From the IMG/VR virus record IMGVR_UViG_2703718793_000014: a stretch of 37,137 bases of DNA; one strand, given 5' to 3'. This document shows positions 8,017 to 37,137 of the stretch, in pieces. Positions within the stretch are counted from its first letter, which is position 1; each line of letters starts with the position of its first letter. The notes beneath the pieces are model-generated. The model did no database searches. It saw nothing but the letters and a program-made list of their open reading frames with translations, and was not told the DNA's origin. A program made the translations under genes and the position numbers. Origin of the DNA: a virus. Its lineage: Duplodnaviria; Heunggongvirae; Uroviricota; Caudoviricetes.

Positions 8017-8976
8017 ATGAAAATTTGTATCGATGACGGCTCCACCAACATCAAGCTGGCATGGACTGAGAACGGCGAACGCCGCAACGCCATCAGCCCG
8101 AACAGCTTCAAGTCGGAATGGTCTGCGCCGTTCGGTGGCACGCAGCCCGCGAACTACATGCTTGATGGCGTGCGCTATGGTTTTGATCCGGTCAGCGATC
8201 GCTTTGTCCAGACGACCGACACGCAATACCAGTACAGCGATGTGAATGTCATTGCCATTCATCACGCGCTGGTCAAATCAGGCATCACACCACAGGAAGT
8301 GGATGTGGTTGTCACCCTGCCACTGAGCGAGTATTTCGACACAAACGCACAGCCGGACATGGCCAACATCAACCGCAAAAAAGCAAACGTCATGCGCCCG
8401 GTGGCGTACCAGAACGGAAAAGCATTCACTATCCGTAACGTACGGGTTATGCCTGAATCCATTCCGGCTGGTTTTAAAGCACTGGCTGACATGAGTCCGT
8501 TTGAATCCCTGCTTATTGTGGATTTAGGCGGAACCACGCTGGATGTGGCAAAGGTTCAGGGGCAACTGGCAGGTATCAGCCAGGTGTTTTGCGATCCACA
8601 CGTAGGCGTTTCTCTGATGGCCAATGCCGTACTGTCGGTGATGGCCACTAACGGTATGCGCACCAGTCACCACATCGCCAATACCATTATCGAACATCGC
8701 CATGATGAAGCCTGGCTGCGCCAGCACATCCACAATGACGCGCATTACGCCAGCCTGATGGCGGTTATTCGTGAAAAGGAAGAAACACTGAAACAACGCG
8801 TGATCCGCGCGCTGGCGGTTTTTTCGGGTTACGGGCGGGTGATGGTTGTCGGTGGCGGGGCGGAGATTGTGGCACCCGCTATCCGCGAAGCCTGCGGAGT
8901 TAATGCGACTTTCATCGCGGACGGGGTGCCACAGTTTGCTCTGGTTAATGGGCTGTACGCAATGGACAAGGAGTAA
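8017..8976 (+). CDS. ParM/StbA-like actin-type segregation ATPase
   Basis: 319 aa; N-terminus MKICIDDGSTNIKLAW, then YSDVNVIAIHHAL, VMPESIPAGF, LLIVDLGGTTLDVA and VMVVGGGAEIV match, block for block, the ParM of plasmid R1 as I recall it (actin-fold phosphate and adenosine motifs). Confidence 0.8.
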   Translation: MKICIDDGSTNIKLAWTENGERRNAISPNSFKSEWSAPFGGTQPANYMLDGVRYGFDPVSDRFVQTTDTQYQYSDVNVIAIHHALVKSGITPQEVDVVVTLPLSEYFDTNAQPDMANINRKKANVMRPVAYQNGKAFTIRNVRVMPESIPAGFKALADMSPFESLLIVDLGGTTLDVAKVQGQLAGISQVFCDPHVGVSLMANAVLSVMATNGMRTSHHIANTIIEHRHDEAWLRQHIHNDAHYASLMAVIREKEETLKQRVIRALAVFSGYGRVMVVGGGAEIVAPAIREACGVNATFIADGVPQFALVNGLYAMDKE

Positions 8977-32995: not shown

Positions 32996-34066
32996 ATGTC
33001 TCTAGTTACCCGCAATGTATTCATTGATACTGAGTTTTTTGTAAAAGCAAACCTGGACTTCAACTCAAAAACTATAAAATCATTTGAAGAACTATGTAGA
33101 AATGATGAGTTCAGGCATATTTCTACAACAATTGTAGTTAAAGAAGTTGAGCGAAAAATCATCGAGCATATACAAGAAGCATTGAAAGGGATTAACAATT
33201 TCCGACGAAAGGCTGTTATCCTCAAAGAATATGAAGATGACAATATTAAAAATCTATTTTGTGAAATTAATGAAACAGACATTCGAGAAAAGGCATTAAG
33301 CGCATTTAATGGTTTCATGGAGGACTCAAACACAACTATTGTAGATATGTCGAAGGTGGACCTCAATGAAGTTATAGACATGTACTTTGATAAAAAAAGC
33401 CCCTTTAGTGCGAAAAAACCTAACGAATTTCGAGACGCCTTCACTCTTTTAGCAATACGTTCCGCGCTAGGAGATAATGAAAAAATTTATGTGGTTTCAG
33501 AAGACCCTGACCTAAAAGGTTACTGTGAAGACAATGATAATTTCATAATTATAGGAGCACTAAACTTACTACTAGATGATTACAACAAACACAATGACGA
33601 AAGAACTGGATTTATAGAACGTTTTTTAGAAAGCAAAAATGAAGAAATCATACAAAAATTAACGGAAGAATTAGAAACTGCTGAAGCTTATAATTCTTCA
33701 ACATGGGAAGACTCAGAGATTGATAGCTTTGAAATTACGAACATAAGCGAATTTGAACCCAAAATAATTCATTTGGATGACGAAAGTTGTCAAATTACTT
33801 TTGATGTTACTGTTAGTTTTAATGTCACTGCCAGCGGACCTGATACCGCAAACGGCTATTATGACAAAGAGGATGGAAAATTTTATACCTTTGACACCGT
33901 ATCTAATCACGAGGAGGAGGAAAAGGATTTTACAGTAGAACTAGAATTATTCTTTGAAATAGACGAAGGCCAGTTTATCAATGATGAGTTTAATTTGCAC
34001 ATAAATGGACTGGATGCTGGTATTGAATTTTGTGTCGATGAAAACTCATGGGAAGACTATAGATAG
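32996..34066 (+). CDS. PIN-like nuclease domain protein with acidic C-terminal domain of unknown function (cargo gene)
   Basis: 356 aa, markedly AT-rich, AAAGGAG Shine-Dalgarno. Ordered PIN hallmarks: VFIDTEFF (first Asp), VVKEVERK (Glu), IVDMSKVD, YVVSEDPDLKGY (Ser-x-Asp-x-Asp). No partner gene visible. Confidence 0.6.
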   Translation: MSLVTRNVFIDTEFFVKANLDFNSKTIKSFEELCRNDEFRHISTTIVVKEVERKIIEHIQEALKGINNFRRKAVILKEYEDDNIKNLFCEINETDIREKALSAFNGFMEDSNTTIVDMSKVDLNEVIDMYFDKKSPFSAKKPNEFRDAFTLLAIRSALGDNEKIYVVSEDPDLKGYCEDNDNFIIIGALNLLLDDYNKHNDERTGFIERFLESKNEEIIQKLTEELETAEAYNSSTWEDSEIDSFEITNISEFEPKIIHLDDESCQITFDVTVSFNVTASGPDTANGYYDKEDGKFYTFDTVSNHEEEEKDFTVELELFFEIDEGQFINDEFNLHINGLDAGIEFCVDENSWEDYR

Positions 34067-34150: not shown

Positions 34151-34411
34151 ATGTTCCGTTGTCCGCTTTGTGGCGCATCTGCCCGTATCCGCACCAGTCG
34201 TCCGGAAAATGATTCAAACACCGTGCGGCAAAAGTATTACCAGTGTAACAATCTGGAATGCGGCGTATGCTTCTCAACACTGGAAGCTTTCCATAAATTC
34301 ACATCAAAACACGCCTCCGGCGTTCACTCTTCAGAAGGTATCCCGTGGCATGAACTGCCAGCTTCACACAGGGGAAACAATCAGATGAGTTTGCCTTTAC
34401 CTCAGAATTAA
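34151..34411 (+). CDS. ogr: Ogr/Delta-type zinc-finger late transcription activator
   Basis: N-terminus MFRCPLCGASARIRTSR...YYQCNNLECGVCF has the Cys-x2-Cys...Cys-x4-Cys pattern and spacing of P2 Ogr. Confidence 0.85.
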   Translation: MFRCPLCGASARIRTSRPENDSNTVRQKYYQCNNLECGVCFSTLEAFHKFTSKHASGVHSSEGIPWHELPASHRGNNQMSLPLPQN

Positions 34412-34602
34412 CAGGCAGAATTGCCGGAGCAACAAAAAAGCGATAGATTACGCGCGGGTGCCTTTCGGCTGATGGTCGGAGGGAATACCCGAAGGCCAGA
34501 TGTGGAAAGGCCCCGGAAAACATTTCTGTTTAACCGAGGCCCTAACATATCTACCTTAAGCAAGTGATAGGTTAGCGCCTCTCCAACAAAGGAGCAAGCG
34601 CT

Positions 34603-34743
34603 ATGTCGCAAAAATCGCTTACGGCCATCACGTTCTGCGTGACCGTAATCCTCATCATCTGGATGCTGCACGGTTCGCTGTGTGAAATACGGATGAGCTT
34701 CTGGGGAGCGGAGTTTGCGGCGTTCTTACAGTGTAAGCAGTAA
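34603..34743 (+). CDS. Hok/Gef-family type I toxin (46 aa)
   Basis: AAAGGAG Shine-Dalgarno; translation MSQKSLTAITFCVTVILIIWMLHGSLCEIRMSFWGAEFAAFLQCKQ has the Hok architecture: N-terminal TM helix, SLCEIR motif, E(F/V)AAF(L/M) motif. Below the size cutoff of the ORF track. Confidence 0.65.
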   Translation: MSQKSLTAITFCVTVILIIWMLHGSLCEIRMSFWGAEFAAFLQCKQ

Positions 34744-34830
34744 GGAAACCGCGACGGGGGAGTAATCCCCCGTCAATCGGTTGCCAGGGTAAGGTCGATA
34801 AGGCACCCTATCTCACAGACATGAACAACA

Positions 34831-34866
34831 AGCCCGCAGCGTAAAAACTGCGGGTTTTCTTTTTGG
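34831..34866 (+). terminator. Rho-independent terminator
   Basis: AGCCCGCAG-CGTAAAAA-CTGCGGGTTTTCTTTTT: GC-rich hairpin followed by a T-tract, downstream of the hok-like gene. Confidence 0.75.
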
Positions 34867-34978
34867 TATCCCCATCCATAAGCAATAGGCATAACAGATC
34901 GATGCAATAAATCCGATCGATAAAAACGATCGATTTGTTATCATATCGGCAGCAGTAACCACACAAGAGGTGCCGCAA

Positions 34979-35176
34979 ATGACGCAAAATGTACGATGCA
35001 AAAATTGCAACAAACTACTTGCCCGCGCCTCATTTCACTACATTGAAATAAAATGTCCGCGCTGCAAAACACTTAACCAGATAACGAGAGCCATCGAGCC
35101 CCCCACACACATGAGGAGTTATGACCGTGGGGATCGCAATCCAGCACCAACCAGCACATACACCGGAACACACTAA
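34979..35176 (+). CDS. com: Mu Com-like zinc-finger translational regulator
   Basis: N-terminus MTQNVRCKNCNKLLARASFHYIEIKCPRCK is near-identical in pattern to Mu Com (RCKNCNKLL...HIEIRCPRCK); its 3' end overlaps the start of the downstream methyltransferase frame. Confidence 0.8.
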   Translation: MTQNVRCKNCNKLLARASFHYIEIKCPRCKTLNQITRAIEPPTHMRSYDRGDRNPAPTSTYTGTH

Positions 35177-35912
35177 GGTTTATCAGACTGACAATGCCAT
35201 GCTCTGTCGTGGGAATGCGCTGGAAATATTGCCGCTGATTGAGCCAGAAAGCATTGATGCCTTAATCACTGACCCGCCTTACAGTTCGGGGGCGACACAC
35301 AAGGCCGGACGCACCAACCAGGGCAGCCATGCAAAATATCTGAACGGCGAGAACCTTCACCGCTTTGATGGGTTCGCGGGTGAAAACATGGACGCCCGTT
35401 CGTGGGCTTACTGAACACAATTATGGATGGCACAGGCACACCGCGCAGTCAGGCCGGGCGGTTATGCCCTGGTATTTACTGACTGGCGACAACTACCAGC
35501 TTTAACCGATGCGTTTCAGGCCAGTGGCTTTACATGGCGCGGCATTATTGCGTGGAACAAAGGGAGGGGGTCACGAACACCACATACCGGGTATTTCCGG
35601 CATCAGTGCGAATACATCGTCTGGGGCAGCAAAGGCCATTTAGATAAATCGCCTTCGGGACCGTTCGACGGCTGCATGACGTTCCCGGTTATCCCGTCAA
35701 AGAAAATGCACCCGACCGGAAAACCAGAAGAACTAATGGCGGAACTGGTCAGGACTGTGAATAGTGGCGGAACAGTCCTTGATCCTTTTATGGGGTCAGG
35801 GACAACGGGTGTGGCTGCACTGAAAGCAGGACGCAAATTTATTGGTATAGAAACCAGTGATCATTATTTTGATGTAGCAACACAACGGCTCAAAACGGCG
35901 ATCGAACCATAA
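35121..35912 (+). pseudogene. Beta-class N6-adenine DNA methyltransferase interrupted by a single in-frame TGA (35412-35414)
   Basis: Motif IV ALITDPPYSSG in the upstream segment and motif I LDPFMGSGTTGVAA in the downstream segment are in the same reading frame, separated by one TGA; motif order IV then I indicates beta class. Start uncertain (35121 or internal ATG 35199). Confidence 0.6.
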
Positions 35913-35956
35913 GACAAAGCCCGCAATGTTGCGGGCTTACTCTACCTCTCGAAAAT

Positions 35957-35979
35957 GTGGTCACTGCGTGGACATACGC
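35957..35979. repeat. Putative attR core: GTGGTCACTGCGTGGACATACGC, imperfect direct repeat of 11-35
   Basis: 18 of 18 positions with one mismatch plus a 5-nt extension match the sequence at 11-35; lies after the last phage-associated gene and before a differently organised gene. Confidence 0.6.
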
Positions 35980-36141
35980 TGATACAAATCCTTTTATATC
36001 AATAAATTAAATCTTTGTTTTTTTCATCAACAAGGATTTTCACGTTTGTGTTACCTGTATGAGACGAGAGTTAACCAGACAAGTGTGCCATAATCTCGCG
36101 GCCAGGCATACTTGCGAAGATTTCAGGTATAAGGATACGTA

Positions 36142-37137
36142 ATGATACAACCTATTTCCGGCCCTCCTCCTGGGCAACCACCAGGTCAGGGAGATAACCT
36201 GCCGTCTGGCGCAGGCAATCAGCCTTTATCCAGTCAGCAACGTACTTCGCTGGAAAGCTTAATGACGAAAGTGACCTCACTGACGCAACAACAAAGAGCA
36301 GAACTGTGGGCGGGTATCAGGCACGATATTGGTCTGTCGGGAGATTCACCGCTGCTTTCGCATCACTTCCCTGCCGCTGAGCATAATCTGGCGCAACGTC
36401 TGTTGGCCGCGCAAAAAAGCCATTCTGCCCGCCAGCTTTTAGCGCAATTAGGGGAGTATTTACGTCTGGGGAATAATCGTCAGGCGGTCACGGATTATAT
36501 CCGTCATAACTTTGGTCAGACGCCGCTGAATCAGCTCTCACCGGAGCAATTAAAAACCATTCTCACCCTGTTGCAGGAAGGGAAGATGGTTATTCCGCAA
36601 CCACAGCAGCGCGAGGCGACCGACCGTCCTTTATTACCGGCGGAGCACAATGCGCTCAAACAGCTGGTGACCAAACTTGCGGCAGCAACGGGGGAACCCA
36701 GCAAACAGATCTGGCAATCGATGCTGGAACTTTCCGGGGTGAAAGATGGCGAGTTAATTCCAGCGAAACTGTTTAACCATCTGGTGACCTGGCTACAGGC
36801 GCGTCAGACGCTAAGCCAGCAAAATACGCCGACACTGGAATCACTACAGATGGCGCTAAAACAACCTTTAGATGCCAGTGAACTGGCGGCGTTATCGGCA
36901 TATATCCAGCAAAAATATGGCCTTTCTGCGCAATCATCGCTTTCTTCTGCCCAGGCCGAGGATATTCTTAACCAGCTTTATCAACGGCGGGTTAAAGGGA
37001 TTGAGCCGCGTGATATGCAACCGCTGCTTAATCCTTTTCCACCGATGATGGACACGTTGCAAAATATGGCAACGCGTCCCGCGCTGTGGATACTGTTAGT
37101 CGCGATTATCCTGATTCTGGTCTGGCTGGTTCGTTAA
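36142..37137 (+). CDS. Host (non-prophage) protein, Gln/Leu-rich with C-terminal transmembrane anchor; function not recognised
   Basis: 331 aa ORF beginning after the att repeat; Pro/Gly/Gln-rich N-terminus, two internally similar helical segments, and a hydrophobic C-terminal tail ALWILLVAIILILVWLV. Confidence 0.6.
   Translation: MIQPISGPPPGQPPGQGDNLPSGAGNQPLSSQQRTSLESLMTKVTSLTQQQRAELWAGIRHDIGLSGDSPLLSHHFPAAEHNLAQRLLAAQKSHSARQLLAQLGEYLRLGNNRQAVTDYIRHNFGQTPLNQLSPEQLKTILTLLQEGKMVIPQPQQREATDRPLLPAEHNALKQLVTKLAAATGEPSKQIWQSMLELSGVKDGELIPAKLFNHLVTWLQARQTLSQQNTPTLESLQMALKQPLDASELAALSAYIQQKYGLSAQSSLSSAQAEDILNQLYQRRVKGIEPRDMQPLLNPFPPMMDTLQNMATRPALWILLVAIILILVWLVR

Follow-up and report, generated by a model that had tools for sequence, protein, structure and literature searches.

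An orphan DNA methyltransferase gene at one end of a prophage overlaps a gene for a Com-like zinc-ribbon protein, and its reading frame is broken by one in-frame TGA. Is this pair controlled in the manner of the com-mom operon of phage Mu, and what does the stop codon mean for the enzyme? Here, we address both questions by comparative analysis of the window (the whole 37,137-nt stretch of DNA analysed) and its relatives. Our best explanation, which we hold to be probable when taken as one whole, is that the cassette shares its regulatory chassis with the Mu com-mom operon, and that its methyltransferase is a lineage-specific pseudogene, inactivated through an ordinary Trp-to-stop point mutation.

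The cassette and its prophage setting

The right-end cargo cassette of this P2-like prophage, which lies between pdxB and flk, is a com-methyltransferase operon. P2-type features of the element include ogr, hok/sok, an integrase, cox and P2-type structural genes. The flanking genes pdxB and flk (start at 36142) are of the E. coli/Shigella type, and a prophage of E. coli B1172 has the identical insertion site next to flk. A Mu-like prophage was considered and ruled out: ogr, cox and the P2-type genes for capsid and tail, together with phage Chuche, point to a P2-like element instead. The cassette is bordered by hok/sok upstream (hok terminator, 34830-34857) and by chromosomal flk downstream, with no restriction partner for the methyltransferase, in line with its description as an orphan in the first-pass annotation. 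A PADLOC scan gave no match for a PIN-domain gene nearby.

That annotation had also called the small protein Mu Com-like, and this is borne out. The ORF matches the Pfam family Zn_ribbon_Com (PF10122) with an E-value of 5.2e-12 and 45.5 bits (cut-off 22.9), shares 57% identity with Mu Com across 42 residues that include both CxxC pairs, and has the four cysteines of the family (CKNC...CPRC). The same com ORF is annotated by RefSeq in relatives. One change in Com is private to the lineage, H41P (35100 A>C), and lies inside the putative operator described below.

The overlapping frame runs for 97 codons from its ATG to the TGA and then on, in the same frame, to the TAA. As had been noticed earlier, the frame is otherwise continuous, and the TGA splits catalytic motif IV (DPPY; residues 51-54, 35271-35282) from AdoMet-binding motif I (FxGxG; here FMGSG, residues 223-227, 35787-35801). 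This motif order is that of the beta class. The C-terminal part matches PF01555 (N6_N4_Mtase) with an E-value of 3.8e-27. When the stop is read as Trp, because relatives carry Trp there, the protein matches a set of solved beta-class enzymes at E-values from 8e-21 (a DpnA-type adenine methyltransferase) to 3e-6, CcrM, MboIIA, RsrI and PvuII among them. The DPPY motif and these structural neighbours suggest that the enzyme would modify N6 of adenine rather than N4 of cytosine. Two named enzymes were ruled out as its identity: M.EcoGII, which at 349 aa is a different protein (PMC5778455), and M.EcoGIX, an unrelated plasmid-borne single-strand methyltransferase.

The overlap of com with this DPPY-type gene, likewise recorded in the first-pass annotation, measures 50 nt if the gene starts at the in-frame GTG, the likely true start codon, and 56 nt if it starts at the ATG. 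Most of 70 unique com loci have the same layout, with com 5′ of and overlapping a DNA-modification gene. The two ORFs, their motifs and their overlap are not attributable to chance. Coordinates are collected in the table.

Table. Features of the com-methyltransferase cassette (positions in the window)
Feature	Coordinates	Strand	Description
Regulatory region with three GATC sites	34885-34935	+	GATC at 34897-34900, 34915-34918 and 34928-34931; homologous to the Dam/OxyR-controlled region before Mu com-mom
Candidate sigma-70 promoter for com-methyltransferase	34917-34944	+	TCGATA, 16 nt, TG-TATCAT; from a consensus scan only, 9/12 matches; overlaps GATC sites 2 and 3
com	34979-35176	+	65-aa CCCC zinc-ribbon protein, Mu Com homologue; ATG 34979, TAA 35174-35176
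Putative Com operator	35084-35105	+	GAG-AG-CC / CC-AUC-GAG / GAG-CC-CC; stem 35088-35091 with 35098-35101, loop CAUCGA (35092-35097)
Stem-loop like the Mu translation-inhibition structure (TIS)	35101-35132	+	CCCCAC (35101-35106) with GUGGGG (35127-35132); inner pairing 35110-35114 with 35119-35123
Beta-class N6-adenine-type DNA methyltransferase, here a pseudogene	35121-35912	+	PF01555 and PDB beta-class matches; ATG 35121, in-frame GTG 35127, TAA 35910-35912
Premature TGA	35412-35414	+	Trp98 to stop (G>A at 35414); TGG in relatives
G+C-rich hairpin	35917-35938		Directly past the methyltransferase stop at the cassette end, close to where the prophage meets the chromosome ahead of flk; 9-pair terminator-like stem (scan)

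Control region and overlap

In phage Mu, the region before com-mom is under Dam and OxyR control, as stated in PMC2909390 with reference to Hattman & Sun 1997. The homologous region of the prophage has its three GATC sites at spacings of 18 and 13 nt, identical to those of Mu. In an ungapped comparison with Mu anchored on the first GATC, 38 of 72 positions are identical, with the identities concentrated from the shared ATAG to GATCGATT, and matches to an OxyR half-site of 8/10 occur at 34907 and 34916. By analogy with Mu, this region may likewise respond to Dam and OxyR. Among the 70 unique com loci, the GATC triad is found in the enterobacterial ones only. The candidate sigma-70 promoter is the sole promoter-like site that a consensus scan detects between the hok terminator and com. 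No Ogr-type late promoter (TGT-N12-ACA) lies upstream of com, and the nine matches to this pattern across the window equal chance expectation. The C-activator site of Mu and the -35 and -10 elements of Pmom, with their 19-bp spacer, are not conserved; in place of the stretch that separates the GATC triad from com in Mu, the prophage has a shorter, unconserved sequence.

The RNA target of Com has been defined by SELEX and SHAPE as CC(N)2-3GAG and GAG(N)2CC (PMC6483171). This published motif, as CC-N3-GAG and GAG-N2-CC, is found at 35086-35102, in a position homologous to the Mu site. At 35088-35101 the motif comes with a C-G closing pair, but the stem of the putative operator has one A.C mismatch (35089/35100); the common E. 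coli allele has A.A there. With a covariance model trained on operators from other taxa, this site ranks first in the window on both strands (74 kb), at 12.1 bits; because its E-value is 0.62, the match is not significant alone and is no proof by itself. Across the family, the operator hairpin clearly covaries over the 70 com loci, is about 100-fold enriched downstream of the com zinc finger, and is fully paired in 46 of 71 unique candidates, compared with 10.8 expected, in 18 stem types. An Rfam scan of 34400-36100 returned no family for the operator, sok being the only notable match; with such covariation, a curated RNA family could be built.

Directly 3′ of the operator, the TIS-like stem-loop is predicted to hold the GGAG Shine-Dalgarno sequence (35115-35118) in its loop and both candidate start codons within its stems. 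Both the minimum free energy and the centroid prediction give this structure (-17.5 kcal/mol, z -2.6, 55% of the ensemble), which is also the minimum free energy structure in Chuche, Mu and two further loci: L025, a Mu-like mom locus, and L006, a Citrobacter locus with com and a C5-methyltransferase. The CCCAC...GUGGG arms and the GGAG loop recur in Mu, L025 and L006. These arms yield no covariation evidence, because they are invariant and also protein-coding.

Com-type translational control is, by comparison with Mu, a well-supported reading of the overlap and the best one. The first-pass annotation had suggested such control and had proposed folding the RNA. Its suggestion gains from a motif and a predicted start-site stem that are placed as in Mu mom, the latter being the favoured fold; at the operator itself the suggestion is less well served, with a mismatched stem, an insignificant model score, and a competing 3-bp hairpin (35085-35087 with 35094-35096) that RNAfold prefers.

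By homology with Mu, the operon may work as follows. Transcription would start at the promoter embedded in the GATC triad, so that Dam methylation and OxyR binding gate expression, and Com would be translated first. The methyltransferase start (GGAG with AUG 35121 or, more probably, GUG 35127) would be locked in the stem-loop until Com bound the adjoining CC-AUC-GAG hairpin (35088-35101) and thereby opened the start-site stem. The enzyme would then be made only once Com accumulates, late in lytic growth, and would methylate adenines of progeny phage DNA, protecting it against restriction.

It has also been suggested, in effect, by the RefSeq product name ('Com family DNA-binding transcriptional regulator') that Com acts on DNA, in which case the overlap with the methyltransferase would reflect compact packing, without control at the RNA level. 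The imperfect operator stem in the window and its weak covariance-model score are compatible with this idea. However, Mu Com has been shown by experiment to be an RNA-binding translational activator (PMC6483171), the binding motif is shared with Mu along with the adjoining start-site stem and the GUG, and the hairpin covaries over many com loci, whichever enzyme follows. We consider a purely transcriptional Com very unlikely, and the RefSeq label is probably misleading.

The in-frame TGA and loss of the enzyme

The first-pass annotation offered three explanations for the TGA, namely a genuine nonsense mutation, a sequencing error, and a recoding or readthrough site, and proposed a comparison with orthologous prophages. 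This comparison shows that the TGA is not conserved: phage Chuche and B1172 carry the sense codon TGG at position 98, and the change from TGG to TGA is a transition. In B1172 it is the sole difference from the window in the methyltransferase gene, and in the TGG alleles the 20 nt on either side of codon 98 are identical. The closest relative is 99.7% identical (three differences over 1,111 nt). Of 5,426 complete E. coli genomes, none has the 41-mer with TGA and 173 have the 41-mer with TGG. Position 98 is aromatic in all five of the diverse homologues compared (W in four, F in one). Intact 263-aa genes are present in Chuche, B1172 and CFSAN004176. The gene appears to be functional in relatives, since intact alleles are found on more than 1,500 contigs and the window differs from Chuche by 28 synonymous and 3 missense changes in addition to the nonsense one.

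In the window, no uninterrupted polypeptide with both motifs is encoded, because the TGA falls at codon 98, and this copy is therefore a pseudogene of a PF01555 family member. This reading is favoured because the TGA is private to the lineage, is present on many contigs, and has counterparts in other copies that carry Q67* or frameshifts. In fact, W98* is one of several independent knock-outs of the gene in related lysogens. Q67* (35319 C>T, giving TAG) is found in three loci (L085, L089, L090), and three distinct frameshift products (P0017-19) are also known; all of these lesions lie inside codons 67-98. The change 35100 A>C in com was considered as a trigger of the nonsense mutations and rejected, as CFSAN004176 combines 35100C with an intact methyltransferase, and Q67* is found with 35100A as well as with 35100C.

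Could the gene nevertheless be intact, or the stop codon be put to use? The TGA is a one-base difference from the closest relative and its 41-mer is missing from the complete E. coli genomes, as might be expected of an error of sequencing or assembly. However, the sequence recurs exactly, with its TGA, in independent NCBI assemblies, in several Logan assemblies of unrelated SRA runs and in an ENA metagenome scaffold (loci L086-88 and L091-93 are identical to the window over 34427-35912), and the exact split products occur on independent public contigs, the 95-aa product on 48 and the 161-aa product on 57. With this one allele on dozens of independent contigs, error is excluded, and we leave it next to no probability; the TGA allele is real and inherited. 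Programmed recoding, by selenocysteine insertion or regulated readthrough to a full-length enzyme, is scarcely more than nominal as a prospect, although the frame runs on across a single UGA and, among the stop codons of E. coli, UGA is the leakiest. The stop is replaced by TGG in Chuche, B1172, CFSAN004176 and the 173 complete genomes. Since these orthologues share the identical flanking 20 nt, no dedicated recoding signal has co-evolved with the stop. Moreover, the Rfam scan found no element in the region, and sister copies with TAG at codon 67 or with frameshifts show a plain loss-of-function pattern. Thus, of the three explanations first offered, the nonsense mutation stands, whereas the other two do not.

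It is also possible that the UGA is leaky without being programmed. Trp is the ancestral residue here, and it is Trp that E. coli usually inserts at UGA; reading by near-cognate tRNA-Trp would give a strongly attenuated, non-null methyltransferase, perhaps better tolerated by the lysogen. The spread of W98* to many isolates fits this idea, and repeated independent inactivation is compatible with a cost of expressing the enzyme; toxicity is documented for unregulated promiscuous adenine methyltransferases and for Mom (PMC3299994, PMC5778455). On the other side, the TAG and frameshift alleles are true nulls, so that the pattern can be explained without attenuation, and the spread may be simple clonal hitch-hiking. 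We judge a leaky allele unlikely. A more elaborate version, in which leakage of Com/TIS repression makes the methyltransferase costly to the lysogen, knock-outs recur, and the W98 UGA is the attenuated, non-null member of the series, is distinctly doubtful; if true, it would amount to natural dosage tuning of a toxic anti-restriction enzyme. Highly improbable is a two-piece enzyme, whose parts, residues 1-97 (with DPPY) and 103-263 (with FxGxG, from ATG 35427), would both be produced and come together as an active methyltransferase. Split methyltransferases of other families are known to work by fragment complementation, an in-frame ATG follows the stop by 13 nt, and gene callers predict the 161-aa product. 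Nonetheless, no Shine-Dalgarno sequence precedes 35427, the conserved aromatic residue and four neighbours are lost at the break, intact relatives are single-chain, and the Q67* and frameshift alleles would not yield complementary halves. The locus is better annotated as a com-methyltransferase operon whose methyltransferase is a pseudogene than as two small genes or a recoding candidate, and the practical consequences are small.

Relation to known com systems

Like that of Mu, the com gene described here overlaps the 5′ end of a modification gene, is preceded by the GATC triad at the same spacing, and contains the CC-N3-GAG/GAG-N2-CC motif, followed directly by a CCCAC...GUGGG stem whose loop holds GGAG and whose 3′ arm holds GUG. 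The two systems differ in their enzymes (a beta-class AdoMet methyltransferase here, the acetamido-adenine modifier Mom in Mu), in their phages (P2-like versus transposable and Mu-like), and in the replacement of the C-activator and Pmom segment. In addition, the operator stem is mismatched and the enzyme inactivated in the prophage.

The first-pass annotation implied that a Com protein paired with a methyltransferase other than Mom would be novel. Such pairs have already been published, and RefSeq annotates both com and the methyltransferase in about 170-210 complete E. coli genomes. In Mu-like prophages, a com homologue lies directly upstream of a DNA adenine methyltransferase, in the position of mom, as with Hin1523 (FluMu), Nma1821 (Pnme1), Hia5/M.HaeV and ORF47/48 of B3 (PMC3299994). 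Relaxed or absent sequence specificity has been shown for these enzymes, which are silent in lysogens, and it has been proposed that they are Com-dependent and serve anti-restriction in the lytic phase (PMC3299994). They are Dam-like, with motif I before DPPY (D12, alpha/gamma type), whereas the enzyme of the present prophage is beta-class, with DPPY first; furthermore, they reside in Mu-like elements rather than a P2-like one.

A closer parallel in phage type is the P2-like Burkholderia phage KS5, which encodes gp21 (Com translational regulator) and gp20 (N-4/N-6 DNA methylase; PMC3091744). Similar pairs occur in Stenotrophomonas phage Smp131 and in many P2-like phages of Burkholderia and Ralstonia. 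KS5 shares with the present prophage the PF01555 enzyme and the com/methylase overlap. Its pair is located between tail genes, whereas the one described here lies past ogr and hok, at the end of the prophage. The proteins of KS5-type pairs are less than 60% identical to those encoded here (below about 48% among the matches listed), and, in contrast to the enterobacterial copy, com loci from outside the enterobacteria do not have the Mu-type GATC triad.

Prophages of E. coli also encode M.EcoGI and M.EcoGII, silent beta-class adenine methyltransferases that are non-specific; they are unexpressed in the lysogen and harmful if constitutive (PMC5778455). They resemble the present enzyme in class and in being prophage-encoded. 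M.EcoGII is another member of the family, 349 aa in length as against 263 aa, its specificity has been characterised, and the passages of PMC5778455 consulted report no com gene for it.

Finally, the comparison of loci bears on how com genes are distributed. DNA-modification genes preceded by Com homologues comprise Mom, D12, N6_N4 and C5 types, and across bacteria Com also precedes Dam-like enzymes. The enterobacterial, Mu-type control module, made up of com, the GATC triad before it, the operator hairpin, and the GUG-GG start with its stem, travels as a unit. Neither this travelling module nor the operator covariation changes the current understanding of Com. The module is joined to at least three unrelated enzymes: Mom, the beta-class methyltransferase described here, and the Citrobacter C5-cytosine methyltransferase.

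The com-methyltransferase cassette and its probable control signals

The first-pass annotation described a Com-like protein overlapping a beta-class methyltransferase that is split by one TGA, and the ORFs, Pfam matches and motif order bear this out in all details. The com product matches Pfam Zn_ribbon_Com (E 5.2e-12) and shares 57% identity with Mu Com. The methyltransferase carries DPPY (codons 51-54) and FMGSG (codons 223-227) in the beta-class order; its C-terminal part matches PF01555 and, if the stop is translated as Trp, the full protein matches the solved beta-class enzymes DpnA-type, CcrM, MboIIA, RsrI and PvuII.

Coordinates of the cassette, its upstream sites and neighbouring genes
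Feature	Position	Strand	Remarks
com	ATG 34979 to TAA 35176	+	65-aa protein, two CxxC pairs
Methyltransferase frame	ATG 35121, in-frame GTG 35127; TGA 35412-35414; same frame on to 35912	+	
GATC triad	34897, 34915, 34928		between hok terminator and com, span 34885-34935
Promoter-like site	34917-34944		only one found between hok terminator and com; overlaps GATC sites 2 and 3
PIN_12-domain gene	32996-34066		356 aa; between gene D and ogr
sok RNA match	34456-34613		47.9 bits, under gathering score of 59
Hok/Gef ORF	34603-34743		
flk	starts at 36142		chromosomal gene

In Mu, the RNA target of Com is a short hairpin lying immediately 5′ of the translation inhibition structure (TIS), whose stem contains the mom GUG start; SELEX and SHAPE place the target, CC(N)2-3GAG, in a C-G-closed hairpin loop, often as the bipartite GAGNNCC(N)2-3GAGNNCC, and the Mu site is GAAUGCCUGCGAGCAUCCCACGGAG (PMC6483171). 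Putative Com motifs occupy the homologous position in the window, where 35086-35106 (GAGAGCCAUCGAGCCCCCCAC) includes GAG-AG-CC, CC-AUC-GAG and GAG-CC-CC. Directly 3′ of these, a stem-loop is predicted in which CCCCAC (35101-06) pairs with GUGGGG (35127-32) and an inner stem forms between 35110-14 and 35119-23, leaving GGAG (35115-18) looped and both AUG 35121 and GUG 35127 base-paired. This fold of 35101-35132, the outcome of a check proposed in the first-pass annotation, is both the minimum-free-energy and the centroid structure (-17.5 kcal/mol, 55% of the ensemble, z = -2.6). Its CCCAC...GUGGG arms are common to Mu, to a Mu-like mom locus of a gut enterobacterium (L025) and to a Citrobacter braakii locus (L006), with GGAG or AGGA in the loop, and are invariant and protein-coding, so that they offer no support by covariation. 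In all of these loci the enzyme frame begins at GUG followed by GG. The GGAG lies 7-8 nt from this start, versus only 2 nt from AUG 35121, and many gene callers also pick the GTG; on these grounds, we infer that GTG 35127 is the real start. Com-type control of the methyltransferase, as first suggested, is thus likely, judging from the motif and a start-site stem like that of Mu.

As an independent test of the operator, we surveyed 80 com loci from one-genome-per-species contigs. Within the 130 nt following the zinc finger (9 kb in all), the loose pattern NNNC-CN2-3GA-GNNN has 94 occurrences, 66 of them with all three unconstrained stem positions paired; elsewhere in the same loci, the fully paired pattern is found only 23 times in 336 kb. 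Of the 71 unique candidates, 46 pair fully, whereas permuting the 3′ arms gives 10.8 +/- 2.7; the paired candidates represent 18 different stem sequences. The operator hairpin therefore clearly covaries across com loci. In extended form (GA-NNNC-CN2-3GA-GNNN-C; L004-L083, same 130 nt) it is often a tandem pair, for example in Acinetobacter, and it has no Rfam family. A covariance model built from 58 such hairpins, with the window and its close relatives left out, was run on both strands of the 37-kb window. The top match is 35084-35105 (12.1 bits; E 0.62, which a model this short does not make significant), and support comes from its falling exactly at the predicted place rather than from the E-value. 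Inside the stem, the window has a mismatched A.C where the common E. coli allele has A.A, and RNAfold favours a competing 3-bp hairpin. A change in the window's lineage, 35100 A>C, falls in the 3′ arm of the putative operator hairpin and converts Com His41 to Pro (EHPT, as in Mu, to EPPT); 35100C is present in 1 of 5,426 complete E. coli genomes, CFSAN004176, whose methyltransferase is intact and sits inside an IS600-truncated prophage remnant.

Transcription may also be controlled as in Mu. The GATC sites are spaced by 18 and 13 nt, exactly as in the triad that precedes com in Mu, and the sequence around them resembles that of Mu from a shared ATAG to GATCGATT. Across 70 unique com loci, the triad is confined to enterobacterial ones: Mu, L025, phage Chuche, a Salmonella locus and the window. 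Dam methylation of the Mu triad stops OxyR from repressing mom (Hattman and Sun 1997, cited in PMC2909390), and the homology makes the same Dam/OxyR control likely here. The Mu segment carrying the C-activator site is not conserved in the window, and no Ogr-type site is found upstream of its com.

Origin and nature of the TGA

Phage Chuche and E. coli B1172, whose cassettes are 96.8% and 99.7% identical to that of the window, encode an unbroken 263-aa methyltransferase. At the stop codon the sole change is a G>A transition at 35414, which converts TGG (Trp) to TGA. Comparison with orthologues, another check proposed at the outset, also finds the sense codon in 173 of 5,426 complete RefSeq E. 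coli genomes and the TGA in none, using 41-nt probes centred on 35414 and a 28-nt exact megablast word, such that matches must include the central base. Because the region 3′ of the stop is without decay, the mutation is recent. Trp98 is a conserved aromatic position among diverse beta-class homologues behind other com genes. The family is under purifying selection, since the 32 methyltransferase sites at which the window differs from Chuche comprise 28 synonymous, 3 missense and 1 nonsense. The com gene differs from that of Chuche at 1 of 198 positions, versus 32 of 736 in the remaining methyltransferase (35177-35912; Fisher p = 0.008), a gap due either to the added constraint that overlapping RNA signals impose or to a boundary of recombination.

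The first-pass annotation left three explanations for the TGA. Sequencing error, which we at first favoured, is excluded by exact-sequence look-ups: the 95-aa product (GTG 35127 to TGA) is on 48 contigs and the 161-aa gene-caller product after the stop on 57, drawn from NCBI assemblies, Logan assemblies of unrelated sequencing runs and one ENA metagenome. Six loci that were fetched equal the window base for base over 34427-35912. An identical allele on dozens of independent contigs means that the TGA is real and lineage-borne, an inherited nonsense mutation (W98*). Selenocysteine insertion or programmed readthrough finds no support, as the sequence flanking the TGA is the same as in TGG alleles, the TGA region matches no RNA family, and other copies are broken in other ways. 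One allele, Q67* (CAG>TAG at codon 67, 35319 C>T), is carried by L085, L089 and L090, including complete genome CP026877.1, and is on 7 contigs; its probe matches no RefSeq complete genome, versus 131 for the wild-type probe. Three distinct frameshift products (P0017-P0019) are also found. Together with W98*, these lesions show the pattern typical of ordinary loss of function that has recurred.

All of these lesions lie within codons 67-98. Such independent inactivation in other isolates hints that the methyltransferase is costly in lysogens. UGA is leaky in E. coli, usually being misread as Trp, and a trace of wild-type enzyme from the W98* allele is conceivable. That the enzyme is at once costly, repeatedly knocked out and, in the UGA allele, leaky rather than null strikes us as quite improbable.

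Relation to known Com-methyltransferase systems

Pairing of Com with a methyltransferase instead of Mom is already established. In Mu-like elements, com is followed by Hin1523 (FluMu), Nma1821 (Pnme1) or Hia5 (an H. aegyptius island), relaxed-specificity adenine methyltransferases that stay silent during lysogeny; binding sites for Com have been proposed where hin1523 begins, and phage B3 has the same arrangement (PMC3299994). In KS5, a P2-like Burkholderia phage, an overlapping "Com translational regulator" and "N-4/N-6 DNA methylase" are annotated (PMC3091744). Using tblastn, we find homologues of the window enzyme in Smp131 and in many Burkholderia and Ralstonia phages, the Smp131 match also falling under a "translational regulator" annotation. 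The published accounts of such pairs that we consulted mention neither a Mu-type GATC triad and TIS joined to a beta-class methyltransferase gene of a P2-like E. coli prophage nor repeated methyltransferase inactivation; both are incremental additions.

In the loci sampled, com precedes enzymes of the Mom, D12, N6_N4 and C5 classes. Within enterobacteria, com, operator and CCCAC...GUGGG start are joined to three unrelated enzymes, namely Mom (Mu, L003; L025), a C5-cytosine methyltransferase (L006 2501-3707) and the beta-class methyltransferase, each starting at GUG-GG within the stem. The regulatory module thus looks like an exchangeable unit.

Prophage setting

Nearly all of the window is a P2-like prophage, with an integrase gene at the left edge, then cox and a replication gene, and with P2-type portal, terminase, capsid, tail and tape-measure genes. 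In the right part are gene D, a PIN-domain cargo gene of low GC content, ogr (Pfam Ogr_Delta) and a hok/sok module, and the com-methyltransferase cassette comes last ahead of the chromosome. E. coli B1172 has a related prophage at the same site, the pdxB/flk interval. The hok/sok-type toxin-antitoxin module (34456-34743) sits between ogr and com. The PIN_12-domain gene has a GC content of 32-37%, versus about 50-55% in its neighbours, and resembles foreign cargo that might serve in defence; a PADLOC scan gave zero matches for it. ParM-type plasmid segregation genes lie at 8017-8976 and in adjacent ORFs (annotation from the B1172 relative), and a 25.4-kb extrachromosomal record of E. coli E110019 (NZ_CP035755.1) carries the same com-methyltransferase cassette, so some relatives may persist as plasmids.
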